A DNA stretch of 59,267 nt from Thermoanaerobaculia bacterium (GTDB taxonomy: Bacteria; Acidobacteriota; Thermoanaerobaculia; UBA5066), in NCBI GenBank assembly GCA_041482235.1, contig JBGPDK010000002.1, positions 1-59,267 on the forward strand, given 5' to 3'. The notes below the pieces were generated by a model. It did not search any database, was not told the DNA's origin, and saw nothing but the letters and a program-made list of their open reading frames with translations. The translations under genes were made by a program, and so were the position numbers. This document shows positions 1,908-57,227 of the stretch, in pieces; the first letter of the stretch is position 1, and each line of letters starts with the position of its first letter.

Positions 1908-2893
1908 CGGCCACCGCCGCCAGGCGCCCGCTCCGGATGGGAACGCGCGCCAGCGCGCTGGCGCGCACGCAGTCGGGAGCGGTGGCCGCGGAGATCACGC
2001 GTGCCACCGGCCACCCCGTCGAGACCGTCATCGTGCGCACGCAGGGCGACCAGCTCTCGAGCGAGGGCAAGGCGCCTCCCGGCGGGGACGAGGCCGGTGT
2101 CTTCGTGCGCGCGCTCGATGAGGCGCTCTTACGGAACGAGATCGACTTCGCCGTCCACTCCCTGAAGGACGTGCCGACGACGGTGGTCCCGGGCCTCGTT
2201 CTCGCCGCCGTGCCCGCGCGCGCGGACGCCCGCGACGCGCTCGTCGTGGCGTCGCGTCACGAGGGCGTCGCGTCTCTCGCGGCGCTGCCGAAGGGAGCGC
2301 GCGTCGCGACGTCCAGCCCGCGGCGTATCGCCCAGCTCCTGCGGCTCCGCCCGGATCTCGTGGCCGTGTCGATGGCGGGCAACGTCGACACACGCCTCCG
2401 ACGCCTCGAGGAGGGACGGGCCGACGCCCTCCTCCTCGCGTGTGCCGGCCTCGACCGGCTCGGCAAGGGAGGCGTCATCACGTGCCGGCTGGAGCGTGAC
2501 GAGATGCTCGGGGCGCCCGCGCAGGGCGCCCTCGGTGTCGGTTGTCGGGCGGACGACGCCGAGACGATCGCCGCGTTGAAGGCGATGGACCACCAGCCCA
2601 CGCGAGCTGCCGCCGAGGCCGAGCGTGAGCTTCTGCAGTTTCTCAGAGGGGGTTGTCGGGCGCCTGTCGGCGCCCGAGGATTCTTAGGAGGTGAAGAGGG
2701 CCGCCAGACCTTGAAGCTCACCGGTCGCGTTCTCTCGCTGGATGGCCGGGAGTGCCTCGAAGACGAGATGAACGCGCCCCTGGCTGATTTGCTCTCTAGG
2801 AAAATCTTCCTCGGCCGTGCCCTCGCCGAGCGCCTTCTCGCGCGCGGCGCAGCGCGGCTCATCGACGCGGCGCGCGAGCGGACGCCGGGGTGA
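1904..2893 (+). CDS. hemC: porphobilinogen deaminase (hydroxymethylbilane synthase)
   Basis: LRMGTRASALARTQ N-terminus, HSLKDVPT, TSSPRRIAQL, GNVDTRLRRL and the GGC cofactor cysteine block. ATGA overlap with hemA. Confidence 0.9.
   Translation: MTATAARRPLRMGTRASALARTQSGAVAAEITRATGHPVETVIVRTQGDQLSSEGKAPPGGDEAGVFVRALDEALLRNEIDFAVHSLKDVPTTVVPGLVLAAVPARADARDALVVASRHEGVASLAALPKGARVATSSPRRIAQLLRLRPDLVAVSMAGNVDTRLRRLEEGRADALLLACAGLDRLGKGGVITCRLERDEMLGAPAQGALGVGCRADDAETIAALKAMDHQPTRAAAEAERELLQFLRGGCRAPVGARGFLGGEEGRQTLKLTGRVLSLDGRECLEDEMNAPLADLLSRKIFLGRALAERLLARGAARLIDAARERTPG
2676..2702 (+). repeat. AT-rich repeat copy, forward arm, inside hemC
   Basis: GAGGATTCTTAGGAGGTGAAGAGGGCC matches the consensus GAAGATTTTCTTAGAAAGGTGAATAGGGCC. 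Translated in frame as GFLGGEEG. Confidence 0.7.
2786..2812 (-). repeat. AT-rich repeat copy, reverse arm, inside hemC
   Basis: The reverse complement reads GAGGAAGATTTTCCTAGAGAGCAAATC. Translated in frame as DLLSRKIFL. Confidence 0.75.
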
Positions 2894-3672
2894 GCGGCAG
2901 GATTCTGCTCCTGCGCTCCGGCTCGGCCGAATCCGATGACGCTCTTCCCCCGGACGTGACCGTACTTCATACGCATTCCGTCGCGCCGCGTCCCGAGGGC
3001 GTCGCCGAGGCGCTCGCGTTCGACGCGCGCGGAGCGACGCTCGTCATCTCGTCGAAGGAGACGGTCAGGGTTTTTGAGTCCAGGGAAGATTGGCTCCCTC
3101 TCTTGAGCTCCCCTTTCGCGCAGATGCTTGCGGTGGGGGAGGGCACGGGGGATTTGCTTAGAAAGGTGAATACGGGCGAGCGGCGCGACGGCACTCCTCG
3201 CGGAGCTTCAACCTACAGTGGGGCTTCCGAGACGCAGATCGTTGTTCCGACGGTCCCGGGAGCCGCGGGGGTCATTCACTTTCTAGGAAAATCTTCGGTT
3301 CCCTCTCAAGTGCGCATCCTGTGGCCGCGCGGGTCGGACGCGGCGGCTGGTCCGCTGGAGGAAGTTCGCGCCCTTGGCGTGGCGCTCTCTGCCCCTGTCG
3401 TCTACGTCAAGCGCGCGCTCGCGCCGTCCGAGCTGGACCCCTCCGTCCTCGCCGATTTCCACGCCGGGCGCTTTTCGGCCGTCGCCGTGGGCTCGACGGC
3501 CGGCTTGGATGCCCTCCTCGCGGCCGTCTCGGCGCCTCCGCACGTAAGATGGGGCGTGCTCGGGCCCGAGACCGCGAAGGCCGTGGTGGCTCGCGGACTT
3601 CCCGATCCTCTGGTTCCGGCGCACGCGCGCCTCACCGATCTCCTCGAACTCCTCCGGAAGGAAACACGATGA
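2890..3672 (+). CDS. hemD: uroporphyrinogen-III synthase
   Basis: A 260 aa two-lobed HemD-like protein placed between hemC and hemB. GTGA and ATGA overlaps on either side. The family is weakly conserved, so the call leans on context. Confidence 0.7.
   Translation: MSGRILLLRSGSAESDDALPPDVTVLHTHSVAPRPEGVAEALAFDARGATLVISSKETVRVFESREDWLPLLSSPFAQMLAVGEGTGDLLRKVNTGERRDGTPRGASTYSGASETQIVVPTVPGAAGVIHFLGKSSVPSQVRILWPRGSDAAAGPLEEVRALGVALSAPVVYVKRALAPSELDPSVLADFHAGRFSAVAVGSTAGLDALLAAVSAPPHVRWGVLGPETAKAVVARGLPDPLVPAHARLTDLLELLRKETR
3147..3177 (+). repeat. AT-rich repeat copy, forward arm, inside hemD
   Basis: GGGGATTTGCTTAGAAAGGTGAATACGGGC. Translated as DLLRKVNTG. Confidence 0.8.
3267..3298 (-). repeat. 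AT-rich repeat copy, reverse arm, inside hemD
   Basis: The reverse complement reads CCGAAGATTTTCCTAGAAAGTGAATGACCCC, the best match to the consensus. Translated as HFLGKSSV. Confidence 0.85.
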
Positions 3673-4640
3673 GCTTTCCCCTCCACCGCTACCGCCGCCT
3701 GAGGCGCTCCGAGAGCCTGCGGACGCTCGTCCGGGAGACTTCCCTCGCCCCTTCGGACTTCATCGCGCCGCTCTTCGTCGTGCCCGGGCGCGGCGTGCGC
3801 CAGCCCGTGCCGTCCATGCCGGGCATCGACCGCGTGTCGCCCGATCTCGCAGCGAAGGACGTGAAGGCGCTCGCGTCGCTCGGCGTTCTTTCCGTGATCC
3901 TGTTCGGGATCCCCGAGGACAAGGACGCGGTGGGAACGTCCTCCGCCGACAACGAGGGCCCGGTCTGCCAGGCCGTGCGGGCGATCAAGGCCGAGAATCC
4001 GGCGACCGTCGTCATGACGGACGTATGCCTCTGCGAATACACCGATCACGGCCATTGCGGCGTCATCGCGCACGACGCGGTGGACAACGATGCGACGCTT
4101 CCCCTCCTCGCGGCCGAGGCGCTCGCTCACGCGAAGGCGGGCGCGGACGTCGTCGCGCCGTCCGACATGATGGACGGGCGCGTCGGGGCGATCCGCGTGG
4201 CCCTCGACGGCGCGGGTTATCGCGACGTGGCGCTTCTCGCGTACGCCGCGAAGTACGCCTCGGGTTTCTACGGCCCGTTCCGCGAGGCCGCCGAGTCGAC
4301 GCCGTCCTTCGGCGACCGCCGCGCCTACCAGATGGATCCGGCGAACGTGCGCGAAGCCGTCAAGGAGGTCCTTTCCGACGTCGAGGAGGGCGCGGACCTC
4401 GTGATGGTCAAGCCGGCGCTTTCGTATCTCGACGTCGTCCGCGCGGCGAAGGAGGCCACGCTCGTGCCGCTCGCCTGCTACAACGTGTCGGGCGAGTACG
4501 CGATGGTGAAGGCGGCCGCCGCGAACGGCTGGATCGACGGCAAGCGCGTGACGCTCGAGATCCTGACCTCGATGAAGCGCGCGGGGGCGGACCTCATCCT
4601 CACCTATCACGCGAAGGAAGCCGCCCAATGGATCGGATGA
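3669..4640 (+). CDS. hemB: porphobilinogen synthase (delta-aminolevulinate dehydratase)
   Basis: MSFPLHRYRRLRRSESLR N-terminus, CLCEYTDHGHCG metal site, APSDMMDGRV, YAAKYASGFYGPFR and YQMDPAN blocks. Confidence 0.9.
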   Translation: MSFPLHRYRRLRRSESLRTLVRETSLAPSDFIAPLFVVPGRGVRQPVPSMPGIDRVSPDLAAKDVKALASLGVLSVILFGIPEDKDAVGTSSADNEGPVCQAVRAIKAENPATVVMTDVCLCEYTDHGHCGVIAHDAVDNDATLPLLAAEALAHAKAGADVVAPSDMMDGRVGAIRVALDGAGYRDVALLAYAAKYASGFYGPFREAAESTPSFGDRRAYQMDPANVREAVKEVLSDVEEGADLVMVKPALSYLDVVRAAKEATLVPLACYNVSGEYAMVKAAAANGWIDGKRVTLEILTSMKRAGADLILTYHAKEAAQWIG

Positions 4641-6004
4641 AGAAAGATTCTCTTGGAAAGAAAGAGGGGGCGGCGGCCCCCGCTCGAAAGCGCACCCGCA
4701 GAACCGTACAGTCCGCGGCGCTGTTCGCGCGGGCTCGGCTGCGCATGCCGGGTGGCGTGAGCAGCCCCGTGCGCTCGTTCGCGTCCGTCGGCGGGACGCC
4801 GTTTTTCGTGAAGAAGGGCCGCGGAGCGACGCTGATCGACGCCGACGGGAACCGCTACGTGGACTGGGTCATGTCCTACGGCCCGCTCCTGTTCGGGCAC
4901 GCCCATACCCCGATCTTGTCGGCCGTCCGAAGAGCCCTGCCCCGCGGCACGTCATACGGCGCTCCTACCCGGGGCGAGGTGGAGCTCGCCGAACGCGTCA
5001 CGAAGGCGTTTCCCTCGATGGAGAAGGTGCGGTTCGTGTCCTCCGGCACGGAAGCCGCGATGAGCGCGGTGCGCCTCGCGCGCGGCGCCACGGGCCGCGA
5101 TCTCATCCTGAAGTTCGCGGGCTGCTACCACGGGCACGCCGACTCGTTCCTCGTCTCCGCGGGCTCCGGCGTCGCGACGCTCGGGATTCCCGGCTCGCCC
5201 GGCGTCCCCGGCTCTCTCGCCGGCCTCACGCTCACGGCGCGGTACAACGACCTCGCCTCGGTCGAGGCGCTCTTCGCCGCGCACCCGAAGCGCATCGCGG
5301 TGATCGCGGTCGAGCCGATCGCCGCCAACATGGGGGTCGTGGCGCCCGCGCCGGGGTTTCTCGAGGGCCTCCGCGCGATCGCCCAGCGCGAGGGCGCGCT
5401 GCTGCTTTTCGACGAGGTCATCAGCGGATTCCGCGTCGCGAAGGGCGGCGCGCAGGAGTTGTACGGAGTCCGTTCCGACCTCACCTGCCTCGGAAAGATC
5501 CTCGGGGGCGGACTGCCGGTCGGGGCGTATGGCGGCCGCGCGGACCTCATGGCGAAGGTCGCGCCGGACGGCCCCGTCTATCAGGCCGGGACACTCTCGG
5601 GAAACCCGCTCGCCATGGCGGCGGGGAAAGCGATGCTCGATTCCCTCACGCCCGCCGCTTACGCGAAGCTCGAGAAGACCGCGGTTGCGCTCGAACGCGG
5701 GATGAACGGCGCCGCGAGGAAGCTGGGCGTCGGGAACCGCGTCGTGATCAACCGCGTGGGGTCGATCCTCACGCCGTTCTTCACGAAGGGTCCCGTCACG
5801 AACTTCGACGAGGCGAAGAAGTCCGACCTCGAGGCGTTCAGGCGGTGGTTCCACGCGCTCCTCGGAAACGGCGTCTTCGTCGCGCCGGCGCAGTTCGAGG
5901 CCATGTTCGTCTCGACCGCCCACACGCCCCGCGACGTCGCGGCCACCGTGAAGGCGCACGAGGCCGGCCTCAGGGAGGCCTTCGGTTTGACGGCCGGCGG
6001 GTGA
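4637..6004 (+). CDS. hemL: glutamate-1-semialdehyde 2,1-aminomutase
   Basis: PGGVSSPVRSF, YGPLLFGHAH, FDEVISGFRV and LGKILGGGLPVGAYGG (PLP lysine block). I chose the start at the ATGA overlap with the hemB stop. An ATG at 4628 is the alternative. Confidence 0.88.
   Translation: MKKDSLGKKEGAAAPARKRTRRTVQSAALFARARLRMPGGVSSPVRSFASVGGTPFFVKKGRGATLIDADGNRYVDWVMSYGPLLFGHAHTPILSAVRRALPRGTSYGAPTRGEVELAERVTKAFPSMEKVRFVSSGTEAAMSAVRLARGATGRDLILKFAGCYHGHADSFLVSAGSGVATLGIPGSPGVPGSLAGLTLTARYNDLASVEALFAAHPKRIAVIAVEPIAANMGVVAPAPGFLEGLRAIAQREGALLLFDEVISGFRVAKGGAQELYGVRSDLTCLGKILGGGLPVGAYGGRADLMAKVAPDGPVYQAGTLSGNPLAMAAGKAMLDSLTPAAYAKLEKTAVALERGMNGAARKLGVGNRVVINRVGSILTPFFTKGPVTNFDEAKKSDLEAFRRWFHALLGNGVFVAPAQFEAMFVSTAHTPRDVAATVKAHEAGLREAFGLTAGG
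4639..4670 (+). repeat. degenerate AT-rich repeat copy at the hemB/hemL junction
   Basis: GAAGAAAGATTCTCTTGGAAAGAAAGAGGGGG encodes the non-conserved hemL N-terminal extension KKDSLGKKEG. Confidence 0.5.
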
Positions 6005-7275: not shown

Positions 7276-7436
7276 GAAAAGGCGGAAAAAGCTAAACCTG
7301 AGGGTTGTCTTGTTCAGGAAAGGGGTATCCTCCCCGCGCAACGCGGCCTCCGGATCCCGTTTTGGGGTATTCCATGAAGAAGTCCCCGCATCGCTGGCCA
7401 GCACCCGGATCGCCGGCGCTTGTTCCTCCTAGTCAT

Positions 7437-7454
7437 TTGATGCAACTGAATCAA
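7437..7454. promoter_or_regulatory. inverted repeat TTGAT-N8-ATCAA upstream of the cytochrome cluster (candidate operator)
   Basis: TTGATGCAACTGAATCAA is a perfect 5+5 inverted repeat about 110 nt upstream of the mtrC-like ATG. The half-sites are those of CRP/FNR boxes, but the spacer is 8 rather than 4. Confidence 0.25.
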
Positions 7455-7549
7455 AGCGGCGCGTGCGACAGGCCGCTACCCTGAGAAGCGAATGAAAACC
7501 ACCACTTTCACCGAGCGTCGGTTCGTTTAACGTTCCCTTCATTTCCGGC

Positions 7550-7556
7550 AAGGAGG
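7550..7556 (+). promoter_or_regulatory. ribosome-binding site of the mtrC-like gene
   Basis: AAGGAGG lies 6 nt upstream of the ATG at 7563. Confidence 0.6.
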
Positions 7557-7562
7557 CTGACC

Positions 7563-9677
7563 ATGTCACTGGCATCTCGTACGGTTCTCACATTCGTCGC
7601 TGGTCTCGTCGCGGTGCCCATGACACCGGTGACGCGCACCAGCCCCTCGACCGCGCCCGTCGCCCGCGAGGAGGTTCCCGTCGCGTATAACGCGACGCAG
7701 AAGGAGTTCTTCCTCGCGCCCGACCAGTTCTCGTTCCTGAGGCCCGGTCTGAACCTGAAGATCGCGTCGGTCACGAACTTCGGCCCCGGCCAGAAGCCGG
7801 TCGTCGAGTTCTTCATGACCGACGACCTCAAGCAGCCCCTCGATCGCACCGGCGGCCTCACGCCGGGCGTCGTCTCCCTCCGGTTCATCCCGGCCGTCTG
7901 GGACGCGACGAATAAGTACTACACGAACTACATCGGCTTCAACGCGGACCCCGCTAAGAACGCGAACCCGGGCCGTGACAACACGGGCGCCTACCAGGAG
8001 CTCGAGACCGGCCACTACAAGTACACGTTCGCGAACGCTCTCCCGGCCACGATGGACCCGTCCAAGCCGCATACGCTGGCCGCCATGGGCTCGCGCAACA
8101 CGACGGACTTCGTCGGGAAGCAGTACTACGCGGTCCCGCAGTACGTCGACTTCGTCCCGTCCACGAACGCGGCCGCGACGACGTGGAACGCCTCGACGCT
8201 CGCGAAGTGCAACTCTTGTCACGACCCGCTCGCGCTGCACGGCGGCAACTACCGCGACCTCAAGACGTGCGCGATGTGCCACAACCCGAACAACATGAGG
8301 GACACGATCCCCGCTTCCGGGGGCGAGCCGGCCGAGGACCGCGGCCGGTACAACGGCCAGATCTTCTGGCACCGCATCCACGCGGGGCTGGAAGAGGAGG
8401 TCGTTCCGGGCATGACGTACCCGCAGGACATCCGCAATTGCGAGACCTGCCACGACCCGGCAGCGGCCGGCGGCGCGAGCTGGTACACGAAGCCCTCGAG
8501 AGCGGCCTGCGGCTCGTGCCACAGCGACGTGAACTTCGTCACGGGCGCGAACCACTCGAACGTCGGCCCGGCGGCCGACGGCACCTGCGCCGACTGCCAC
8601 ACCCCGCAGGGCAGCGTCGAGTGGGACGCCGGCATCAAGAACGCCCACGTCGTTCCGCTCCACTCGGCCCAACTCAAGGGCTACACGGCCACGATCCTCT
8701 CGGTTTCGAACGCGGGCCCCGGCAAGAAGATCACCGTCACCTTCAAGCTCCAGAACGGCGACGGCTCCTTCGTCGACCCGGGCGTCTACAAGGTCGCCGC
8801 GAACGGTTCGATCAGCATCAAGCTCGGCGGACCGACGTCCGACTACACGAACGTCGGCATGCTCGCGGCGGGCCAGCCCTTCAGTGAAGCCGTCCAGACC
8901 GCGACGTACAACGCCACGACCGGTATCGCGACGTACACGTTCACGAACGCGATCCCGGCCGCGGCCAAGGGCACGTACACCGTCTCGATCGACACGCGCC
9001 GCTCGGTCACGCTCAATCCGGCCCCCACGAAGGGACCGACGTCGGTCAACGAAGGCGCCCCGAACCAGCCCTTCTCCTTTGCGGTCACGGGGACGACGGT
9101 CGTTCCGCGCCGCACGTCCGTCCTCCTCTCGAAGTGCAACGCCTGCCACCAGGACCTCAAGGTCCTCTTCTCGCACGGCAACCAGCGCATCACGATCGAG
9201 CACTGCGTCATCTGTCACAACCCGAACGGCAGCGACATCGGCCGCCGCGCCGCGGACGGCTCCCAGAACCCGCCCGAGTCCATCGAGTTCGCGCGCATGA
9301 TCCACCGCATCCACACGGGCGAGAATCTGACGCAGGACTACACGATCTTCGGCTTCGGCGGCACCCCCGCGAACTTCAACGACGTCAAGTACCCCGGCGA
9401 CCGCCGGAACTGCCTCGCCTGCCACGTGAACGCGGCTGCCGTCGCGCTTCCGCTCCCGATCACGAACCAGCCGGTCGTCACGGATCGCGACTTCTTCTCG
9501 CCGCGCGGCTCGGCGACCGCCGCCTGCACGGGCTGCCACGACAGCCGCGACGTCGCCGCACATGCGTTCCTCAACACGGCGTTCTTCCCGAAGGACCCGA
9601 CCGCACCCGCCGAGGCCTGCGGAACCTGCCACGGAGCCGGAGCCGAATTCGCCGTCGACAAGGTCCACGCCCGCTAA
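7563..9677 (+). CDS. decahaem c-type cytochrome, MtrC/OmcA-like
   Basis: 10 CXXCH sites (CNSCH, CAMCH, CETCH, CGSCH, CADCH, CNACH, CVICH, CLACH, CTGCH, CGTCH). They are arranged as a haem-free beta-rich region, 5 haems, a second haem-free region and 5 haems, which is the four-domain MtrC/OmcA layout. N-terminal hydrophobic signal and strong RBS. Confidence 0.8.
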   Translation: MSLASRTVLTFVAGLVAVPMTPVTRTSPSTAPVAREEVPVAYNATQKEFFLAPDQFSFLRPGLNLKIASVTNFGPGQKPVVEFFMTDDLKQPLDRTGGLTPGVVSLRFIPAVWDATNKYYTNYIGFNADPAKNANPGRDNTGAYQELETGHYKYTFANALPATMDPSKPHTLAAMGSRNTTDFVGKQYYAVPQYVDFVPSTNAAATTWNASTLAKCNSCHDPLALHGGNYRDLKTCAMCHNPNNMRDTIPASGGEPAEDRGRYNGQIFWHRIHAGLEEEVVPGMTYPQDIRNCETCHDPAAAGGASWYTKPSRAACGSCHSDVNFVTGANHSNVGPAADGTCADCHTPQGSVEWDAGIKNAHVVPLHSAQLKGYTATILSVSNAGPGKKITVTFKLQNGDGSFVDPGVYKVAANGSISIKLGGPTSDYTNVGMLAAGQPFSEAVQTATYNATTGIATYTFTNAIPAAAKGTYTVSIDTRRSVTLNPAPTKGPTSVNEGAPNQPFSFAVTGTTVVPRRTSVLLSKCNACHQDLKVLFSHGNQRITIEHCVICHNPNGSDIGRRAADGSQNPPESIEFARMIHRIHTGENLTQDYTIFGFGGTPANFNDVKYPGDRRNCLACHVNAAAVALPLPITNQPVVTDRDFFSPRGSATAACTGCHDSRDVAAHAFLNTAFFPKDPTAPAEACGTCHGAGAEFAVDKVHAR

Positions 9678-9688
9678 CGAGGCAAGGT

Positions 9689-10600
9689 GTGAAAAAGCTC
9701 TCGCTCGGGGCCCTCGCCGCCGCCGCCCTCGCCGTTCTCACGGCGGGGGCCGCGGTGGCCCAGGCTCCGGCTACCCCGGCTCCTGCGAAGGTGGAAGCCG
9801 GCCCCGCGTGCGCCGACTGCCACGACGAGGCCAAGATCTTCGCGGGCAACCCCCACACGCGCGGCTACCGCGCCGCCCACGGCGGAGCGGCCAGCGGCGC
9901 GGTCTGCGCCACGTGTCACGGCGACGGGACGAAGCACCTGGAGGCTGGAGGGGACAAGACCCTCATCAAGAGCCTTCACGGCCGTTCCGGCGCCGACGCG
10001 TGCGCGACCTGTCACAAGCAGTCCGCGGAGCGCTCGTCTTTCAAGACGGGCGTGCACGCGTCGTCCGAGGCGGTCAACTGCCTCTCCTGCCACTCGATCC
10101 ACAAGTCGAACGCGAAGCAGGCCAGCCTGCTCGTCTCCGAACCGACGACGCTGTGCGCAACCTGCCACCAGGACGCGGCTTCGTCCTTCCGGACGCTTCC
10201 GTACGCGCACAAGCTGAAAGAGGGCGCGCTCTCGTGCGTGTCCTGCCACGACCCGCACGGCCGCTCGGCCAGGCACGCGGTGAAGGAGACGAGGGCCGGC
10301 GAACCCGGCTGCGTCTCCTGCCACGCGGAGGTGCGCGGTCCCTTCGTCTTCCCACACGTCAGCGGTACCACCGGCGACTGCACGAGCTGCCACATTCCGC
10401 ATGGCTCCTCGTATCCCCACCAGCTGCAGCGGGCGACGATCGCCGCGCAGTGCCTCGAATGTCACTCGACGCTCTCGGCGGGGACTCTGGGTTCGCAGCC
10501 GCCTTCTTTCCACAATATCTCGCTGCCGCGCTACCGGAACTGCACGACCTGCCACGTCGCCGTGCACGGTTCCCAGCGCTCGCCGCAGCTCTTCAAGTAA
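9689..10600 (+). CDS. periplasmic decahaem c-type cytochrome, MtrA/DmsE family
   Basis: 303 aa with 10 CXXCH sites, a signal peptide (LAVLTAGAAVAQA), and the size and haem density typical of MtrA/DmsE. GTG start with GAGG 6 nt upstream. Confidence 0.85.
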   Translation: MKKLSLGALAAAALAVLTAGAAVAQAPATPAPAKVEAGPACADCHDEAKIFAGNPHTRGYRAAHGGAASGAVCATCHGDGTKHLEAGGDKTLIKSLHGRSGADACATCHKQSAERSSFKTGVHASSEAVNCLSCHSIHKSNAKQASLLVSEPTTLCATCHQDAASSFRTLPYAHKLKEGALSCVSCHDPHGRSARHAVKETRAGEPGCVSCHAEVRGPFVFPHVSGTTGDCTSCHIPHGSSYPHQLQRATIAAQCLECHSTLSAGTLGSQPPSFHNISLPRYRNCTTCHVAVHGSQRSPQLFK

Positions 10601-10609
10601 GGACGGCCG

Positions 10610-12550
10610 ATGCGAACATTCCGCTCCGCCTTCCTCGTCGCCGCTCTCGCCTCGACCCTCGGTTCGGCCGGCGTCGCCAGTGCCCAGGCGATTCCCTTCG
10701 ACATCGAGGTCGGGTACCGCTTCGTCAGCATCATCGGCAGCGAGGAGTCCTATCGCTCCCAGATCAACGAGCGCGAAGGATTTCTCGTGCGCAGCCTCCA
10801 CATCGGAGCCGACGGCCAGTCTGACGGTTTCCGAGCGATCGACCACCTGCGGATCGACGGCTCCGAGCTCGGAGTCGGCCCCGCCGGCTCCCTGCGTCTC
10901 GACGCGGGCCTCACCGGCGCCTACCGTCTGCGGTTCTCGTACCGGCACCTCGACCAGTTCAGCGCCCTCGCCGGTTTCGCGAATCCGCTCGGCGCCGCGA
11001 TCGGCCAGCAGACGTGGGACCGCACCCGGAACATGGTGGACGTCAACCTCGAGCTTTTGCCGGGGGCCGTCGTCACGCCTCTCGTCGGGTACACCTCGAA
11101 CCTCCTGAACGGTCCGGGCCGCTCGACATTCACCGTGGGCCAGGACGAGTTCCGCCTCGGCCAGGATCTCAAGGTCAATGACCAGGAGTTCCGCGTCGGC
11201 GCCGGCTTCCACGCGGGACCGGTATCCGGCGAATTCCTCCAGGGGTGGCGCCGATACCACGAGATCGAGAAGCTCAGCCTCTTCCCCGGCGCGGGCGCTG
11301 GCAACGATCCGGGCACGGTCCTCGACAAGAACGTGAGCCTCTCGACCCTGACGCGTTCGAGCGTGACCGACGTCAACAGCCCGACGAGTTCGCTGTTCCT
11401 GCGCGGCTTCGCGACCGACGCGGTCCAGCTCATCGGTTTCTACGTCCGCTCGAACGCGGGCGCGGACAGCACGGACCAGGAGAGTCTCAATGGCTCTCTC
11501 GTCTCGTTCGAGCTGTCCCGTTTCTTCACCGGCCTGATCGACAACTCCTCCTCGCGCGTTCAGAACACGGTCTGGCGCGCGGGCGCTCGCCTCGAATGGC
11601 ACGTCCTCGACGGCATCGACGTGACGGGCGGCTACGTGCGCCGCCATGCCTCATGGGACGGCCAGGACCTCGTGAGCAGCCTGTTCACGGGGACGTCGAC
11701 CTTCACGGGCTTCACGCTCGCGGACATCCAGACGATTCTCAACGCCCAGACCTCGGTCGACCGCGTCGAGGACGTGTTCGACGCTCAGGTTTCCGCGAAA
11801 GTCTTCGGGCCTTTTGGCGTCCGTGCGGGCTATTCGCGGATCCAGCAGGACCTCACGGTCACGCAGGACCCGTCGGAGATCATCATCCCCGGCGGCCAGG
11901 GGGGGGACTTCACCCGCGACATCAACCGCCTCGAGGGCGCCCTCACGTTTGCGTCCGGGTCCTTCTTCGCGGCCGGCGAAGCGTCGTGGGACGACGCGAA
12001 CCAGTCGATTCTCCGCACCGACTACCTCACCCGCAATCGCGAGCGCGTGCGCGTCACCTGGAAGGGATTCCCGTGGCTCACGCTCGGCGCGACCGGTCTG
12101 TGGGTCGACCAGAAGAACGACACGCTCGGCATCAACTCGAAGGGCAGCTCGCGGCAGTACACGGGCGATCTCACGCTCATGCCGGTCAAGGTGCTGAGGC
12201 TCCACGCGGGCTACGGCAAGCTGCAGGCCGACAATTCGATTCCGATCCGTGCACCGCAGGACTTCACGGTGCTCGCCTCCGTCAACAGGGAGGACGGCGA
12301 GCTGTGGGAGGCCGGAGTCGGCGTCACGCTCGACAAGAAGGTCGCGATCGACGGATTCTGGACGCGTTTCGCGAACGAGGGCTCCTACCAGTACCGGCTC
12401 TACCGCGGCGGCGCGCGCGTCGATTTCGACGCCACCGCTCACGTTGGACTCATCGGCGAATGGTCGGTCGACCGGTATCTCGACTTTCAGATCGCGACGT
12501 CCAGCTTCCGAGCCAACCGTTATGGCGTGTACCTCAAGTGGCACCCCTGA
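10610..12550 (+). CDS. outer-membrane beta-barrel protein, MtrB/PioB-like by context
   Basis: Signal peptide (ASTLGSAGVASAQA), 646 aa, and alternating hydrophobic/polar beta-strand pattern throughout with an aromatic-rich C-terminus (YGVYLKWHP). No haem sites and no cysteine. It immediately follows the MtrA-like gene. Confidence 0.6.
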   Translation: MRTFRSAFLVAALASTLGSAGVASAQAIPFDIEVGYRFVSIIGSEESYRSQINEREGFLVRSLHIGADGQSDGFRAIDHLRIDGSELGVGPAGSLRLDAGLTGAYRLRFSYRHLDQFSALAGFANPLGAAIGQQTWDRTRNMVDVNLELLPGAVVTPLVGYTSNLLNGPGRSTFTVGQDEFRLGQDLKVNDQEFRVGAGFHAGPVSGEFLQGWRRYHEIEKLSLFPGAGAGNDPGTVLDKNVSLSTLTRSSVTDVNSPTSSLFLRGFATDAVQLIGFYVRSNAGADSTDQESLNGSLVSFELSRFFTGLIDNSSSRVQNTVWRAGARLEWHVLDGIDVTGGYVRRHASWDGQDLVSSLFTGTSTFTGFTLADIQTILNAQTSVDRVEDVFDAQVSAKVFGPFGVRAGYSRIQQDLTVTQDPSEIIIPGGQGGDFTRDINRLEGALTFASGSFFAAGEASWDDANQSILRTDYLTRNRERVRVTWKGFPWLTLGATGLWVDQKNDTLGINSKGSSRQYTGDLTLMPVKVLRLHAGYGKLQADNSIPIRAPQDFTVLASVNREDGELWEAGVGVTLDKKVAIDGFWTRFANEGSYQYRLYRGGARVDFDATAHVGLIGEWSVDRYLDFQIATSSFRANRYGVYLKWHP

Positions 12551-12585
12551 ACCGGACGCAGAGTCGAAGAAGAAAGGGTCATGAC

Positions 12586-12915
12586 ATGAACAAGGTACGT
12601 CTTGGAGTCGTCTCGCTCGCCTCGGCCGTCGCGCTCGTCGCCGGTTCAGCTCTGGCGACCATGGACTCGCAGAAGCAGATGGGTGCGACCTATCCCAACG
12701 CCCCCAAGGCGAAGTGCGGCACCTGTCACACGAAGGCGATGCCCAAGAAGGGCGAGGCGGACGTCAACGCTTACGGCAAGGCTCTCGGGGCGACGAAAAA
12801 GGACACCACGTACGACTTCGCGAAGATCGAGAAGCTGGACAGCGACGGCGACGGCGTCTCGAACCTCGACGAGATCAAGAAAGGGACGAACCCGGGCGAT
12901 CCCGCGTCGAAGTAG
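12586..12915 (+). CDS. small secreted monohaem c-type cytochrome with a C-terminal EF-hand-like calcium loop
   Basis: Signal peptide, a single CGTCH, and DSDGDGVSNLDE, which matches the 12-residue EF-hand/TSP3-type loop pattern. Confidence 0.7.
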   Translation: MNKVRLGVVSLASAVALVAGSALATMDSQKQMGATYPNAPKAKCGTCHTKAMPKKGEADVNAYGKALGATKKDTTYDFAKIEKLDSDGDGVSNLDEIKKGTNPGDPASK

Positions 12916-12924
12916 GATCGGGGG

Positions 12925-14172
12925 ATGAGGTTCGGGGGCGTTCTCGCCGCGTTTCTGCTCACGGCCGCCCCCCTTCAGGCGGCGGCGCCGCCCCCGAAGC
13001 CTCCCGCCAACGAAGATTGTCTCGCCTGCCACGAAGACCCGTCCGCGAAACGCGCCAACGGGTCTCCCGTTCTCGTCGACAGGGCGGCCTTCGCCGCCTC
13101 CGTCCACGGAGCCGCCGGCGCGTCCTGCGTCGACTGCCACCAGGACCTCGCGAAAACTGCCGATTTTCCCCACCCCGAAAAGCTCGCTTCCGTGGACTGC
13201 GCGTCCTGTCACGCGTCGGAAGTCGCGGACTACGAGAAGAGCGTTCACGCCGCCGAACGCGGGAAATCGAAGGCCAGCAAGGCTGCGTGGTGCACGGACT
13301 GCCACGGCATCCACGACATCCGGCCGTCGAAGGACCCCGCGTCGCGCACGAACCACTTCAACCTTCCGACGACCTGCCTGAAATGCCACGGGAATCTCGC
13401 GGTCGTGCCGGGCGCTGGCGGACCTCCCGTGAATCAGCCGGCACTCTTCCACGACAGCATCCACGGCCGCGCGCTCGAGAAGAGCGGTCTGAAGTTCGCC
13501 CCGAATTGCTCGAATTGCCACGGGGCGCATGCGATCCGCAATCCGAAGACTGACGCCGAGAGCTCGGTCTACCGGACGAAGATCCCCGCGACCTGCGGCA
13601 ACTGTCACGAGAAGATCCTCGCGGAGTACAGCGACTCGATCCACGGGACCCAGCTTGCGAAGGGCAACCCGAAGGTGCCCGTCTGCTCCGACTGTCACAC
13701 GGCGCACGCCATCACGGCTGTCACCGATGTGCGCCGCCTCGCGATTCTCCACCAGTGCGGGGGCTGTCACGAGTCCTCGCTCGCGACCTATCGCGATACC
13801 TATCACGGCCAGGTGAACGCGATGGGCTTCTCCCGCATCGCGACCTGCGCCGACTGCCACACGGCGCACCAGATCCATCCGGCCGGCGACCCGCGGGCCT
13901 CGGTCGCGCCCGCGAATCGCCTGGGCACGTGCCAGAAATGTCATGCCGGGGCGACAGCGAACTTCTCCCGTTACGACCCGCACGCGAACACCCACGACAA
14001 GGGACGGAGCCGCCTGCTGTGGGCTACGGCCCTCTTCATGAAGATCCTCCTCGCCGGAGTCTTCGCGTTTTTCGGAATTCACACGGTTCTCTGGTTCCCC
14101 CGGTCTCTGAAGGCGCGCGCCGCCGAGGGCCGAGGCGGCCGCAGAGCGGGTAAGGGACACGGAGCGCCATGA
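12925..14172 (+). CDS. 11-haem c-type cytochrome with a C-terminal membrane anchor
   Basis: Signal peptide, 11 CXXCH sites and one C-terminal TM helix (LLWATALFMKILLAGVFAFFGIHTVLWF). ATGA overlap with the following b-type cytochrome gene. Confidence 0.8.
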   Translation: MRFGGVLAAFLLTAAPLQAAAPPPKPPANEDCLACHEDPSAKRANGSPVLVDRAAFAASVHGAAGASCVDCHQDLAKTADFPHPEKLASVDCASCHASEVADYEKSVHAAERGKSKASKAAWCTDCHGIHDIRPSKDPASRTNHFNLPTTCLKCHGNLAVVPGAGGPPVNQPALFHDSIHGRALEKSGLKFAPNCSNCHGAHAIRNPKTDAESSVYRTKIPATCGNCHEKILAEYSDSIHGTQLAKGNPKVPVCSDCHTAHAITAVTDVRRLAILHQCGGCHESSLATYRDTYHGQVNAMGFSRIATCADCHTAHQIHPAGDPRASVAPANRLGTCQKCHAGATANFSRYDPHANTHDKGRSRLLWATALFMKILLAGVFAFFGIHTVLWFPRSLKARAAEGRGGRRAGKGHGAP

Positions 14173-15011
14173 TGACGGAGAAGGCCCCCGCGGCGGACGG
14201 CAGAGTCTGGGTCCGGCGCTTCGACCGGTTCGACCGCTCGCTGCACATTCTCCTGATGGCGAGCTTTCTGGGTCTCTCGCTGACCGGCGTGCCGCTGCTG
14301 TTTTCGGACAGGCCCTGGGCCGCGGGCCTCTCGCGTCTCTTCGGCGGGTTCCGGGCGGCGGCGACTCTGCACCGCGTCTTCGCCGCCGGGATGCTGCTGT
14401 GCTTCGGAAGCCATCTCGCGCGCCTCGCGAAGCGGCTCTTCGGAGACAAGGAGTACGAGATTCTGTGGGGGCCGTCCTCCCTCGTTCCGCAGCCACGGGA
14501 CTTCATGGAGCTCGTGCACCACGTACGCTGGTTCCTCGGCCGGGGTGCGCGACCGCGTTTCGACCGCTTCACCTACTGGGAGAAATTCGATTACTGGGCC
14601 GTGTTCTGGGGCATGGGGATCATCGGGGGCTCCGGACTGATTCTCTGGGCCCCGAAGTTCTGGGCGCGCTTCCTGCCGGGGGACCTGTTCAACATCGCGC
14701 TCCTCATCCACGGCGAGGAGGCGCTTCTCGCGGTCGTTTTCATCTTCACGATTCACTTCTTCAACGGCCACCTGAGGCCCGAAAAGTTCCCGATGGACAC
14801 GGTCATCTTCACGGGCGTTCTGCCGCTCGAGGAGCTGAAGCACGAGCGGCCCTCCGAGTACGATCGGCTCGTGGCGGAGGGCGGCGTCGAGCGCCTCGCG
14901 TCTCCGGCGCCGACCGCCGATCGCGTCTTCAAGAGCCGGATCATCGGGACGATCGCGGTTTCCCTGGGCCTCCTCCTCGTTGCGTTTACACTCATCGCTC
15001 TGTTGAGCTGA
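14169..15011 (+). CDS. membrane b-type cytochrome (FdnI/HydC-like Ni/Fe-hydrogenase b-type cytochrome family)
   Basis: Four or five TM helices with conserved His residues ([52 protein letters not shown]). Coupled to the 11-haem gene. Confidence 0.7.
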
Positions 15012-15033
15012 ACCGGCGTCGAGGAGGAGTCAC

Positions 15034-16488
15034 ATGAGCGCAGGAACCGGCGGCCGTCTGGCCGGGTGGCTGAGGCCGATCTTCTACCTGGGGCGCAACC
15101 GCGCCTCGCAGCTCGGCGTCGGACTCACGACGAGCGCCGCCGTCACGCTGATCGGCTTCTGGCTCTTCGAGGTCACGAACTCCAAACCCGTCCATCCGTA
15201 TTCGGGCATCCTGTTCATCCTCGTTCTCCCGTTCGTCTTCCTCATGGGACTCGTCCTCATCCCGATCGGGATTCTCTTCGAGCGCCGCCGGCTGCGCCGG
15301 GCGGGTCAACTTCCCACGGTTTACCCGAAAATCGACCTGGCCGATTCGAACCTCCGGCACGCGGGCATCCTCATCGCCGGCCTGACGGTGGCAAACGTCG
15401 TGATCCTGAGCCTCTCGGCCTACGTGGGCGTCGAGTACATGGACTCCGCGCGTTTCTGCGGGCTCACGTGCCACACGGTCATGGCGCCCGAGTTCACGGC
15501 ATACCTCGACTCGCCTCATTCGCGCGTCGCCTGCACGAGCTGTCACATCGGCCCGGGAGCCCCGTGGGTCGTGAAGGCGAAGGTGGACGGCGTGAGGCAG
15601 GTCATCGCGGTCACGTTCGGCACGTACGCGCGTCCGATCCCGTCTCCCGTGCACACGCTGCGTCCCGCCCGGGCGACCTGCGAACAGTGCCACTGGCCGC
15701 AGAAATTCCAGGGCGACAAGCTCAAGATCATCTCCAAGTTCGGCGACGACGAGAAGAACACGCCGACGAAAACGGTCCTCCTCCTGAAGCTGGGAGGTCG
15801 CATGGGGTCCCGGGCCACAGGGATCCACGGCCGGCACCTCGACGACAAGGAGCGGATCTCGTACCTCACCTCGAACCCGCGCCGCGAGGTCATTTCCTCG
15901 GTGACCTACCTCGGCGACGACGGAAAGCCGGTGGAGTTCGCGTCGACCGAGGTGAAGGCGACACGCGAGGAGGCACGCACGGGCGAGAGACGGACGATGG
16001 ACTGCATCGACTGCCACAACCGGCCCACGCACGCGTTCCAGCTCCCGGAACGCGCGGTGAACGAGGCCATGGCGGCCGACCGCATCAGCCCCGAGCTGCC
16101 GTTCATCCACAAGAAATCGATCGAGCTCCTGAAGATCGCCTATCCGACGCGCGAGGCCGCTTTCGAGCGATTGGAGAAGGACCTCACGGAGTTCTACAAG
16201 ACCAGGTATCCCGACGTGTACCAGACCCGCCGTGCGTCCGTCGAAACCGCGGCACGCGAGGTCCAGCGGATTTACGGGCGAAACGTGTGGCCCGAGATGA
16301 GGATCACCTGGGGAACGCACCCGAACCACATCGGCCACGAGGACTTCCTCGGGTGCTTTCGCTGCCACGACGGCAGCCACAAAGCGGCCGACGGGCGCGT
16401 CATCTCGGCCGAATGCGACGCCTGCCACGCCCTGCTCGCGCAGGACGAGACGAATCCGAAAGTGCTCGCGGATCTCGGCATCCGTTGA
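15034..16488 (+). CDS. membrane-anchored multihaem cytochrome, NapC/NirT-like
   Basis: Three N-terminal TM helices, then FCGLTCH (CX3CH) plus five CXXCH sites (CTSCH, CEQCH, CIDCH, CFRCH, CDACH). The [14 protein letters not shown] block is typical of this family. Confidence 0.75.
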
Positions 16489-16554
16489 CCGGTCCTCTTT
16501 GAAACAGGTGCATCATGGGAGAGGGAGGGGTCAAGACCCCACCCTGTAGGTACC

Positions 16555-17493
16555 GTGGACCTCACGACCTCGTACCTGGGGCTCAAGCTGGCCCATCCGC
16601 TCGTGCCGGGCGCGTCTCCTCTCTCCAGGGAGCTCGATTCGGTCCTTCGCCTCGAGGATGCCGGCGCGCCCGCGATCGTGCTGCACTCGCTCTTCGAAGA
16701 GCAGATCTCGGCCGATCCCCTCCGCACGCAGCGAACGCCCACGGACCCGGTCGGCTACCTCGAGCACCTGAACCGGGTCAAAGAGTCCGTCCACGTTCCG
16801 GTCATCGCGTCGCTCAACGGCACGACCGACGAGGGCTGGACCTCGTTCGCGAGTCTCGTCGAGCAGGCGGGGGCCGACGCGCTCGAGCTGAACATCTATC
16901 ACCTCTCGACGAGCCTCTGGACGAGCGGCGCGACGCTCGAGGCCTACACGCTCGACACGGTTCGCGCCGTGCGCTCTCTCGTCTCGATCCCGGTCGCGGT
17001 GAAGATCTTCCCCAATTTCTCCTCGATCGCGTCGCTCGCGCGGCAGTTCGAGGAGATCGGCGCGAACGGGCTCGTCCTCTTCAACCGCAGCTACCAGCCG
17101 GACATCGACCTCGAGACGCTGGAGGTCGTGCCCGATCTGCGCCTCTCGAGCTCGAGCGAGCTGCTGCCGCGTCTCTACTGGATCACGACGCTCTTCGGCC
17201 GCGTGGACCTGTCGTTGGCCGTGACGGGCGGCGTCCACACGGGAGCGGACGCCCTGAAGGCGATTCTCGCCGGGGCGGACGTCGTTCAGATGGTCTCGGC
17301 TCTTTTCCAGGGCGGTCCCGGCCACCTGAACGTCGTGCGCAAGGAGGTGGAGCAGTGGCTCGAGTGCCACGGCCACTCCTCCCTCAGCGAGGTTCGGGGC
17401 TGCATGAGCCTCGAGCGGCGGGAGGATGCCAGCTCGTCCACCCGCGCCGGGTTCGTGCAGGTTCTCCAGCGGGGAATGCGCCCGGCACCTTAG
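16555..17493 (+). CDS. dihydroorotate dehydrogenase-like protein (class 1 DHOD/DHPD fold)
   Basis: TSYLGLKLAHPLVPGASP N-terminus, IASLNG, ELNIY and GGVHTGADALKAILAGA are TIM-barrel flavoenzyme blocks. GTG start. Confidence 0.75.
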   Translation: MDLTTSYLGLKLAHPLVPGASPLSRELDSVLRLEDAGAPAIVLHSLFEEQISADPLRTQRTPTDPVGYLEHLNRVKESVHVPVIASLNGTTDEGWTSFASLVEQAGADALELNIYHLSTSLWTSGATLEAYTLDTVRAVRSLVSIPVAVKIFPNFSSIASLARQFEEIGANGLVLFNRSYQPDIDLETLEVVPDLRLSSSSELLPRLYWITTLFGRVDLSLAVTGGVHTGADALKAILAGADVVQMVSALFQGGPGHLNVVRKEVEQWLECHGHSSLSEVRGCMSLERREDASSSTRAGFVQVLQRGMRPAP

Positions 17494-20822: not shown

Positions 20823-21995
20823 ATGCCGCGCCTCACGCTCCAGACGGCGGGCGAGTCCCACGGCCCGCTCCTGACGGGCCTCGTCACGGGGCTCCCCGCC
20901 GGCCTCAGGATCGACGTCGCGGCGTTGAACGCCGACCTCGCGCGGCGGCAGCACGGTTACGGGCGCGGCGGCCGCATGAAGATCGAGAAGGACGAGGCGC
21001 GGTTCACGGGCGGACTCCGCGGCGGCGAGACCCTCGGCAGCCCGATCGCCTTCGAGATCGCGAATCGCGACCACGGCGTGTGGGAGAAGGTCATGGACCC
21101 CGTGGACATGGACCCCGAGGCGGCGGCGAAGCGCCGGCTCACGTCGCCGCGGCCCGGGCACGCGGACCTCGCGGGCGGACTCAAGTACGGCCGGCGCGAT
21201 CTGCGGGATGTCCTCGAGCGCGCCAGCGCGCGCGAATCCGCGGCGCGCGTGGCGGCCGGCGCTCTGTGCCGGCAGCTCCTCCTCGCGCTCGGAATGCGCG
21301 TGAAGAGCGGCGTGCTCTCGATCGGGGATGTCGCGGTGCCGGAGGGGCCGCGCTCTTACGAGGATCTCGACGGGGTCGACGAAACCTCGCCGTTCCGGCT
21401 CGTGGACCGGGGCGTCGAGGGGGCCATGAAGGCCGCGGTCGACGCGGCGGCGAAGGCCGGCGACACGCTGGGCGGGACGATTCTCGTCGGCGCCCGCGGC
21501 GTTCCGCCGGGCCTCGGCTCGCACGTCTCGTGGGAAGACAAGCTGGACGGGCGGATCGCGCGCGCGTTGATGTCGATCCCGTCCGTGAAGGCCGTCTCGC
21601 TGGGGGAAGGGGTCGCCAACGCGTTCCGACGCGGCTCCGCCGCGCACGACGCCATCATCCACGAGCCGGAGCACGGGTTCTCCCGCACGTCGAACCGCGC
21701 CGGCGGCCTCGAGGGGGGAATCACGAACGGCGAGGACGTGCTTGCGACGCTCTATCAGAAGCCCATCTCCACGCTCCGCGACGGCCTTCCTTCCGTGGAC
21801 ATCGAGACGAAGCAGCCGCACCGCGCGCAGTACGAGCGCTCGGACGTGACGGCCGTGCCGGCGTGCGGCGTCATCGGAGAGGCCATGCTCGCCTTCGTCC
21901 TCGCGGACGCGCTCCTGGAGAAGACGGGGGGGGATTCGATGGAAGAAGTGAAGAGGAACTTCGAAGGGTTCGTGAAGGCGCAGAAACAGTACTGA
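20823..21995 (+). CDS. aroC: chorismate synthase
   Basis: LQTAGESHG N-terminus, RRQHGYGRGGRMKIE, RPGHADLAG and ERSDVTAVPA blocks. Internal ATG of ORF 20199..21995. Confidence 0.9.
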   Translation: MPRLTLQTAGESHGPLLTGLVTGLPAGLRIDVAALNADLARRQHGYGRGGRMKIEKDEARFTGGLRGGETLGSPIAFEIANRDHGVWEKVMDPVDMDPEAAAKRRLTSPRPGHADLAGGLKYGRRDLRDVLERASARESAARVAAGALCRQLLLALGMRVKSGVLSIGDVAVPEGPRSYEDLDGVDETSPFRLVDRGVEGAMKAAVDAAAKAGDTLGGTILVGARGVPPGLGSHVSWEDKLDGRIARALMSIPSVKAVSLGEGVANAFRRGSAAHDAIIHEPEHGFSRTSNRAGGLEGGITNGEDVLATLYQKPISTLRDGLPSVDIETKQPHRAQYERSDVTAVPACGVIGEAMLAFVLADALLEKTGGDSMEEVKRNFEGFVKAQKQY

Positions 21996-22001
21996 GCATT
22001 T

Positions 22002-22034
22002 CGAAGAGAATTTTCTTAGAAGGGTAAGAAACCG
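22002..22034 (+). repeat. AT-rich repeat copy, forward arm, downstream of aroC
   Basis: CGAAGAGAATTTTCTTAGAAGGGTAAGAAACCG starts 7 nt after the aroC stop. Confidence 0.8.
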
Positions 22035-22038
22035 ACCC

Positions 22039-23178: not shown

Positions 23179-23230
23179 ATTTCGGACCCGTCCGTTTCGT
23201 GCAGGCGTCGGTTCATCGGGCCACGGTCTG

Positions 23231-23260
23231 CAAAGTTTCTTAGAAGGTGAATAGGGCCGG
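23231..23260 (+). repeat. solitary AT-rich repeat copy between convergent genes
   Basis: CAAAGTTTCTTAGAAGGTGAATAGGGCCGG ends 9 nt before the M23 peptidase stop codon. Confidence 0.8.
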
Positions 23261-55301: not shown

Positions 55302-55332
55302 ACGGTACACGTCTTGCTGTTCGGAGGGCCGA

Positions 55333-57084: not shown

Positions 57085-57227
57085 ACCCTCGCGACATGGT
57101 GTTTCACGCCCGCGCCGCGGCCTGAAACATTTCATCCCGCGAAGAGACGTTTCGTTTCAAGAAATCGCGCTTTCGGCCGCTTTGCGCATGGCTCAGTTCT
57201 TGAAGTGGCGCTCCCGAGGAGAAGTAC

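Follow-up and report, generated by a model that had tools for sequence, protein, structure and literature searches.

Short repeats in a haem biosynthesis cluster and beyond

The stretch of DNA analysed here, in the following called the window, comprises 59,267 nucleotides of contig JBGPDK010000002.1 of a Thermoanaerobaculia bacterium and has a G+C content of ≈70%. It carries a complete haem cluster in the order hemA-hemC-hemD-hemB-hemL, and the present study concerns short AT-rich repeats that lie inside hemC (1904-2893) and hemD (2890-3672); the identity of the genes was assigned by Pfam and by PDB HemC matches. An earlier inspection of the letters alone (the sequence-only reading) had described four copies, one inverted pair in each of the two genes. 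All four were present at the positions and with the sequences given there, and they are translated in different codon phases without any stop codon (Table 1). We refer to the single copies as arms and to the DNA between two paired arms as the centre.

The arm consensus consists of ≈20 purine-rich nucleotides that are followed by GAAGATTTTCTTAGAAGGG and then by (T)GAATAGGG, i.e. (T)GA(A/G)T(A/G)GGG. A near-invariant core, TTTCTTAGAAGGG, is located between purine-rich flanks within a consensus of ≈27 nt, and the stretch T-T-T-C-T-T-A-G-A-A-R-G-G is conserved to 92-100%. Judged from its sequence, TTTCT-T-AGAAA is a quasi-palindrome of 5+1+5 positions for which no self-hairpin is possible.

Runs of A and T had been described as rare in the window, and at least 11 clear copies of the motif had been counted. 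Both statements were borne out. A scan for 24-nt stretches with a G+C content of at most 37.5% revealed only 19 such patches in the 59 kb of contiguous sequence that was examined for the distribution of copies, and approximately half of them bear the motif. A fuzzy scan with a 16-mer (up to three edits) yielded 11 matches in the window compared to 0-1 in shuffled sequence, and a weight matrix of 27 columns, trained on 171 copies that were all located outside the window, detected 13 matches of at least 8 bits against ≈0.2 expected (Markov-1 null, mean 0.18, maximum 2) and 11 matches of at least 10 bits, for which the null gave 0. An nhmmer profile of the arm brought no gain in sensitivity over this fuzzy search, and a generic repeat finder was swamped by GC-rich chance matches. 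Three groups, at 2.7-4.7 kb, 22-23 kb and 56.3-56.6 kb, contain the window copies, and the 33 kb from 23.3 to 56.3 kb were free of matches of at least 8 bits in the weight-matrix scan.

The arms belong to a genuine dispersed repeat family, as the sequence-only reading had supposed, with copies in the window and in ≈24 metagenome-assembled genomes (MAGs) of Thermoanaerobaculia/Acidobacteriota. When one genome per GTDB species was scanned for the exact 19-nt pattern GAAGATTT(N0-1)CTTAGAARGG, at least 117 stretches matched. Among the stretches listed, ≈100 came from these ≈24 GC-rich MAGs, and the remainder were single matches in AT-rich genomes, in line with chance. The hem regions of the related loci L001, L002, L003, L122 and L123 contain 3-8 copies apiece; zero copies were found in the loci scanned of the more distant relatives L004 and L124 and of L129, a Holophagales-like outgroup. 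The motif family is specific to this one clade of uncultured Acidobacteria. An assembly artefact is excluded because orthologous copies occur in independent NCBI, ENA and JGI assemblies. A phage origin was considered and rejected: viral contigs gave two matches only, both AT-rich and probably due to chance. A literature search returned no account of repeats in Thermoanaerobaculia.

Most copies are arranged in a polar manner. Among 85 pairs of neighbouring copies (less than 400 nt apart), 67 have the convergent orientation (+-), compared to 5 (-+), 11 (--) and 2 (++), in agreement with the inverted doublets known from REPINs (hairpin-forming doublets of REP, i.e. repetitive extragenic palindromic, sequences) to which the arms had been likened. 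Singlets and tandem clusters occur beside the doublets. The core-to-core distance has its mode at 74-76 nt and a tail that reaches ≈300 nt; the sharp mode is mainly contributed by pairs outside open reading frames (ORFs), and pairs with both arms in one ORF span 67-195 nt. The centres (40-55 nt, 74% G+C) cannot be aligned between copies, and when 63 elements (several from each genome) were compared all against all, centre sharing was detected at orthologous loci only. In 11 orthologous pairs, identity amounted to ≈0.83 for the arms, ≈0.72 for the centres and ≈0.79 for the flanks. Folding of the centres relative to shuffles gave a mean z-score of ≈0.

Most pairs are intergenic. Of 238 copies, 86 (36%) are located well inside long ORFs with high G+C at third codon positions, compared to 70% of random positions. 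The ORF-internal copies comprise 56 in reverse and 30 in forward orientation. Stop codons close two reading frames of the forward arm and one of the reverse arm; a ratio of 2:1 is therefore expected and is matched by the observed 56:30. Coding constraint filters the arm positions that are permitted.

Table 1. Arms and associated features in the window (scores in bits refer to the weight matrix)
Feature	Position	Strand	Remarks
hemC arm 1	2676-2702	+	GAGGATTCTTAGGAGGTGAAGAGGGCC; encodes GFLGGEEG; tail-less type; 8.3 bits, the weakest copy
Native HemC domain-3 codons between the arms	2703-2785	+	aligned to PDB 4mlq and to motif-free orthologues; outside any inserted element
hemC arm 2	2786-2812	-	reverse complement GAGGAAGATTTTCCTAGAGAGCAAATC; encodes DLLSRKIFL; 14.9 bits
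hemD degenerate arm-like low-GC patch	3068-3115	+	includes a window-specific 6-codon insert
hemD arm 1	3147-3177	+	GGGGGATTTGCTTAGAAAGGTGAATACGGGC; encodes DLLRKVNTG; 31.9 bits
hemD lineage-specific extra segment	3181-3231	+	RRDGTPRGASTYSGASE; follows arm 1
hemD arm 2	3267-3298	-	reverse complement CCGAAGATTTTCCTAGAAAGTGAATGACCCC; encodes HFLGKSSV; 30.6 bits
Solo decayed arm, hemB stop/hemL start junction	4641-4685	+	24.6 bits
Cluster past the aroC stop into the next gene start	21989-22085		weak reverse 21989-22015, forward 22005-22035, reverse 22051-22085
Solo forward arm between convergent genes	23227-23256	+	35.7 bits
Four in-frame arms, multihaem cytochrome gene	56304-56555		partial forward 56304-56330, forward 56340-56376, reverse 56425-56456, reverse with Ser tail 56505-56555

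Arms on native codons and their conservation

Relative to the HemC of B. megaterium (PDB 4mlq), the window protein has three additional residues at arm 1 and six at arm 2, which agrees with the former estimate that domain 3 is ≈8 residues longer than usual. The 28 residues between the arms align with native domain 3 of this structure, and the arms thus overlay native codons, as had been proposed, rather than delimiting a single insertion of 130 bp. Distant relatives among 120 HemC homologues lack both arms ('GALATLEG--DVLRLRG ... CVSVGAAIAVG'). Arm 1 is carried by most ingroup sequences as GF[LF]EGEEG and is placed over the codons of a native '..LEG..' strand, where it adds three to four codons net (+4 in the alignment of orthologues). 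Arm 2 is found in nearly all ingroup sequences; it reads DLLSKKIFLG in the subgroup of the window and, in relatives, PSxPSKKS plus a tail of 0 to ≈50 residues that is rich in Ser. Ancestral-like alleles without arm 1 (P0060-62, P0079, P0085-98) are scattered over three clades of a neighbour-joining tree, a distribution that suggests recombination between lineages or repeated gain. In the HemC proteins P0052, P0046 and P0051, repeated PS.KS units from tandem arrays of reverse arms give domain 3 a Ser-rich insert that is up to ≈50 residues long, which amounts to a large length polymorphism in an essential enzyme.

The situation in hemD is similar. Arm 1 lies over a native 'ELR/EALK' helix and, in L123, changes the length by -1 codon, so that no length is gained there; arm 2 (HFLGKSS), which replaces native 'EHLKGKK', adds one codon net. 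Both arms are kept in the window, L001, L002 and L003, the rare codons CTT, AGA and AAT included. The ≈20 extra residues that had been noted between the arms correspond to a segment of 16-19 codons that is present in the window, L001, L002 and L003 and absent from L123, L122, L004 and L124; its codons TCA ACC TAC AGT GGG GCT are near-invariant as DNA. The second low-GC patch described for hemD (3068-3115) does exist. L122 carries the arm-like sequence GTTTTCCTGGAAGGGAAGAAGGGG at ≈6545, a position matching this patch, and the region seems to gain arms repeatedly.

A third case is provided by the ORF at 55129-57084, which encodes a multihaem cytochrome and reads through four arms. According to an alignment of 112 orthologues, outgroup proteins have the sequence ISRDLLRQ-RGET-RPPEERV-RLGR-RGTPLWNLR-PS-G-SGW. 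The forward arm (EEDFLRKGSEG) occupies the exact place of RDLLRQRGE, and LWNLRPS has given way to the Ser-tailed reverse arm (LLNLLRRSSSS...). At the forward site the codons are CGC GAC CTC CTC CGG CAG in L129, CGG GAT CTT CTG AGA ATG in L127 and GAA GAT TTT CTT AGA AAG in both L128 and the window. The corresponding series at the reverse site is AAC CTC CGC CCT TCG (L129), AAT CTC CGG CGG TCA TCC (L127), AAC CTT CTA AGA AAT TCC (L128) and AAC CTT CTA AGA AGA (TCT)n (window). The cores of the two L128 arms are separated by 74 nt, which equals the family mode, and the 26 native codons between them are collinear with the outgroup without any indel. In hemC and in the cytochrome gene alike, the tail-bearing reverse arm is shared by a broader range of relatives than its forward partner, suggesting that the arms of a pair were gained stepwise. 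The inner arm of the window cytochrome (TLSKKSSS) adds ≈30 residues, and its segment (APDGAARLGR... beside the adjacent APPDARVRLGR...) looks like a tandem duplicate of the neighbouring native segment plus an arm. A decayed tandem arm likewise seems to make up the purine tail 5' of the forward arm.

Arms also lie over ordinary helices and strands in ProA (TTFKEIS), an alpha/beta hydrolase (LSKNIRILFL) and a GluQRS-like enzyme (LEDLLRKRMVY), and further host genes code for MeaB, PheT, TyrS and a DUF1015 protein. The hosts are diverse, and the special tie to essential haem biosynthesis genes that had been assumed therefore has to be abandoned. The spacer between hemB and hemL gives a different picture. 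The two genes overlap without any arm in L001, L002 and L004, a solo forward arm together with 45-60 extra nucleotides is present in the window and in L123, and full pairs with ≈190-200 extra nucleotides and unrelated centres are found in L003 and L122; no clear target duplication could be detected at this junction. The sites in L015 and L022 that are orthologous to the solo arm at 23227-23256 have full pairs.

The assumption that DNA and not a peptide is conserved was confirmed, since translation through the arms uses at least three frames. To this the codons add a quantitative argument: a codon ending in A or T is kept as an A/T-ending codon in another species in 82% of cases within arms compared to 42% in the rest of hemC and hemD (five species, odds ratio 6.1; the pairwise counts are not independent of each other). 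An identical-codon test gave 0.71 versus 0.67 and was uninformative owing to the strong codon bias. Over the variable 14 nt at each side of the core, two partner arms resemble each other no more than arms picked at random do, and no private variants common to partners were found. Mismatches between arms, counted on the sense strand, amounted to 40 versus 38 with no excess of G·U, and covariation of partner arms was not detected. Each arm is therefore drawn to the consensus of the family and not to its partner. This pull to the consensus speaks against both template switching and selection for an RNA stem, and in favour of recognition of the sequence in trans. Template-switch or quasi-palindrome copying as the source of partner arms was rejected on the same ground, namely that partners have no private variants in common.

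A putative duplex-DNA signal and its alternatives

The explanation that we favour, with a probability of roughly 40%, is that the arms constitute a clade-specific signal in duplex DNA that is recognised in trans by some factor, gained in situ, extended by local slippage or duplication and favoured in the form of convergent pairs ≈75 bp apart. In the alignments, new arms form in place through base substitutions and short indels, at sites where the native peptide is already near an open arm translation (DLLRK, FLEGE, LLRKSS, PSKKS). The purine-rich part then seems to lengthen by local slippage and tandem duplication. Arms are held across species as nucleotides, and most of them belong to convergent pairs whose cores are preferentially ≈75 nt apart. 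The attractor is presumably a DNA-binding protein or complex that occupies two head-to-head sites; it could be of an architectural, topological or roadblock type, by analogy to the host proteins on REP sequences and on bacterial interspersed mosaic elements (BIMEs). Intragenic copies of the hemC and hemD type would accordingly represent sites that the proteins could afford and not insertions that they survived. Of the two functions that the sequence-only reading had offered as an alternative to mobility, protein-binding sites fit the data better; RNA-pairing sites do not, since neither covariation nor a G·U bias was found. A more far-reaching version, to which we attach somewhat less confidence, is that the arms represent an undescribed, genome-wide and polar signal of ≈27 nt that is written in situ, into essential genes too, through recoding of peptide-compatible codons, and that is selected or driven into convergent pairs ≈75 bp apart because a dedicated clade-specific factor reads two sites at once.

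Several points weigh against a signal of this kind. No candidate binding protein was identified, and the usefulness of hundreds of protein sites, some of them in essential genes, is not obvious. The spacings show no periodicity of 10.5 nt that would indicate helical phasing, and insertion of a unit would account for the spacing mode equally well. Insertion is also favoured by the depletion of copies in ORFs. The armed hemB/hemL junctions contain extra DNA (45-200 nt); new DNA therefore appears together with arms, at least in spacers. The clustering of the window copies fits local duplication as well, and the 'proto-arm' of L127 in the cytochrome series could be a decayed arm instead of an intermediate.

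The foremost alternative, which we consider unlikely, is a non-autonomous mobile element of the REPIN, MITE (miniature inverted-repeat transposable element) or RPE (Rickettsia palindromic element) type: an arm-centre-arm unit of ≈110 nt would be moved by a transposase encoded elsewhere, intragenic copies would be in-frame survivors and solo arms decayed units. REPINs are inverted doublets at over-represented distances of 71 or 110 bp with a less conserved spacer; they are extragenic, have a spacer hairpin with compensatory changes, form near-identical populations and are tied to RAYT, the REP-associated tyrosine transposase (Bertels & Rainey 2011, PMC3116915). The arm family resembles REP sequences and REPINs in its short conserved arms of 20-30 nt, in the prevalence of inverted doublets with a fixed spacing (≈75 nt core-to-core here), in a spacer that is less conserved than the arms and in the occurrence of singlets and tandem clusters, and it is likewise lineage-specific, vertically inherited and long-lived. 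The sharpness of the spacing mode, the low share of copies in ORFs (36% vs 70%), the extra DNA at the hemB/hemL junction with its empty site in other lineages and the ≈30 residues added by the inner cytochrome arm can all be read in favour of mobility. Against mobility, the family departs from REPINs in the following points. As many as 36% of the copies lie in ORFs (hemC, hemD, PheT, TyrS and ProA among them) instead of being extragenic. Centres at non-orthologous sites are unrelated, even inside one genome, and do not share sequence above background, contrary to a near-identical replicating population that includes the spacer. The centre is unstructured (z ≈0) and there are no compensatory changes, i.e. 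neither covariation nor G·U bias, and the 5+1+5 core lacks the self-hairpin of REP sequences. A search by regular expressions (HUH plus YxxNPxxA) for RAYT/IS200-type signatures, which is weak evidence, found no such ORF in ≈1 Mb of sampled loci. An autonomous parent between distant arms was not apparent either, as no long arm-to-arm distance recurs.

MITEs have terminal inverted repeats, a target-site duplication and a conserved interior derived from an insertion sequence. The arm family shares the inverted arms with them, but no clear target duplication was seen at hemB/hemL, the internal sequence is unconserved and no long arm-to-arm unit recurs. An RPE is a complete element of ≈100-150 bp whose insertion contributes a conserved peptide to the host protein (Ogata et al. 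2000, 2002, via PMC10969869). The common feature is a palindromic repeat that is translated in frame in unrelated housekeeping genes without destroying them. The arms differ in that they may be read in any of three frames, replace native residues with a net length change of 0-4 codons per arm and enclose sequence of the host gene, which is native in hemC, hemD and the cytochrome gene alike. The former proposal of a REPIN- or RPE-like mobile family is thus supported with respect to the inverted doublets and the dispersed family; its mobile part is not, given the unshared centres, the missing hairpin in the centre and the native codon positions of the arms.

The arms could alternatively act in single-stranded nucleic acid (RNA or single-stranded DNA), as hairpins formed by pairing of arms in transcripts that affect mRNA stability, processing, antisense termination or translation. 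The arms do pair in the minimum-free-energy fold of 38 out of 40 elements as well as in hemC and hemD, and the +- polarity places a purine arm 5' and a pyrimidine arm 3' on both strands. Some pairs are located directly 3' of stop codons, and a terminator-like score was obtained for the antisense strand at 4664-4681. The folding z-score was -2.8 for hemD; for hemC it was only -0.7, which is not better than shuffles. Against a hairpin, partners show neither covariation nor extra complementarity nor a bias of G·U over A·C. Conservation extends to the sequence as such, beyond the need of pairing, and long-lived solo arms exist. Rfam 15 gave no match at gathering score in the whole window and, near the arms, merely hairpin-like matches far below threshold; a promoter and terminator scan found nothing at the hemC and hemD arms. 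Taken together, a hairpin function appears rather improbable to us.

Ranked just behind it, and equally hard to favour, is an uptake signal. Uptake signal sequences (USS) of Pasteurellaceae and DNA uptake sequences (DUS) of Neisseriaceae have cores of 9-12 nt, occur approximately once per kb in a fairly even distribution, and their inverted pairs form tight terminator hairpins. Biased uptake plus recombination (molecular drive) would fix mutations that improve the motif, in genes too. The arms evolve in a comparable way, being a clade-specific motif with inverted pairs that colonises coding regions by peptide-compatible substitution (the cytochrome codon series, the hemC and hemD overlays) and against the base composition, with AT-rich codons maintained; the scattered distribution of arm-1-bearing and ancestral-like hemC alleles, suggestive of inter-lineage recombination, would fit as well. 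The arms differ from USS and DUS by a consensus of ≈27 nt, a density of only ≈0.2 per kb, a strong polarity of the pairs with a preferred spacing of ≈75 nt and a clustered occurrence with a gap of 33 kb in the window, and the purine tails and tandem duplications would have no role. An intragenic inverton, in which the inverted arms serve as recombinase sites and flipping of the short segment between them recodes or silences the gene, is highly implausible: the inverted hemC segment does stay open, but that of hemD gains two stop codons, all 120 HemC and 112 cytochrome orthologues show the native orientation, most pairs are intergenic and a segment length of 80-130 bp is very small for recombinase synapsis.

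Related repeats, significance and side observations

The architecture of the arm family is REPIN-like and its mode of evolution resembles that of an uptake signal; if the arms are a signal written in situ, no described repeat family would combine the two. BIME-type REP clusters consist of inverted short repeats that are bound by the integration host factor (IHF) and DNA gyrase and are extragenic. They share with the arms the inverted pairs at a set distance, and protein binding, a feature of BIMEs, is here only proposed; the motif is unrelated, and the extragenic location of BIMEs sets them apart. HIP1 of cyanobacteria is a perfect palindrome of 8 nt without pairing, tails or preferred spacing, the function of which is debated. 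As in HIP1, a short palindromic motif is enriched in genes via codon choice and conserved at orthologous positions; pairing, tails and a preferred spacing are properties of the arm family only.

If the in-situ reading is true, a signal of ≈27 nt can be imposed on essential genes via peptide compatibility, with protein and signal co-adapting; the documented cases have so far mainly been short uptake sequences. The family would further point to a DNA-reading factor specific to Thermoanaerobaculia, a widespread uncultured lineage of soil and sediment, and the motif would serve as a lineage tag for these bacteria in metagenomes. The arms also have a practical aspect. With their Ser-, Glu- and Lys-rich tails they give rise to low-complexity inserts of variable length in housekeeping proteins and to spurious N-terminal extensions (hemL; the aminotransferase gene from 22039), both of which can mislead annotation as well as alignment. 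The called N-terminus of HemL (MKKDSLGKKEG..., 4638-4685) is arm-encoded, as is that of the aminotransferase (MDFDLEFPSKKSS..., start 22039, 22039-22085), and the repeat may displace annotated start codons in this clade.

On the minus strand at 4664-4681, a GC hairpin precedes the T-rich complement of the arm at the hemL start, and the two together score as terminator-like for antisense transcripts. The forward arm (TTAGGAGGTGA in copy 1, 2683-2696; AGAAAGGTGA in the consensus) is similar to a strong Shine-Dalgarno sequence, and the reverse arm is presumably akin to the 3' end of 16S rRNA (CACCTCCTTTCTAAG) minus CCT. Genes for multihaem c-type cytochromes are abundant at 7400-17000 and 55100-57100 of the window (CxxCH-coding direct repeats D2, D17 and D18), and a cytochrome-rich stretch adjoins the hemA-hemC-hemD-hemB-hemL cluster. 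Finally, hemD contains the codons GTA AGA TGG (V R W) at 3544-3552, of which two are rare A-ending codons; they are identical in five of five species, the motif-free L004 included, and may reflect a separate constraint at the nucleotide level.

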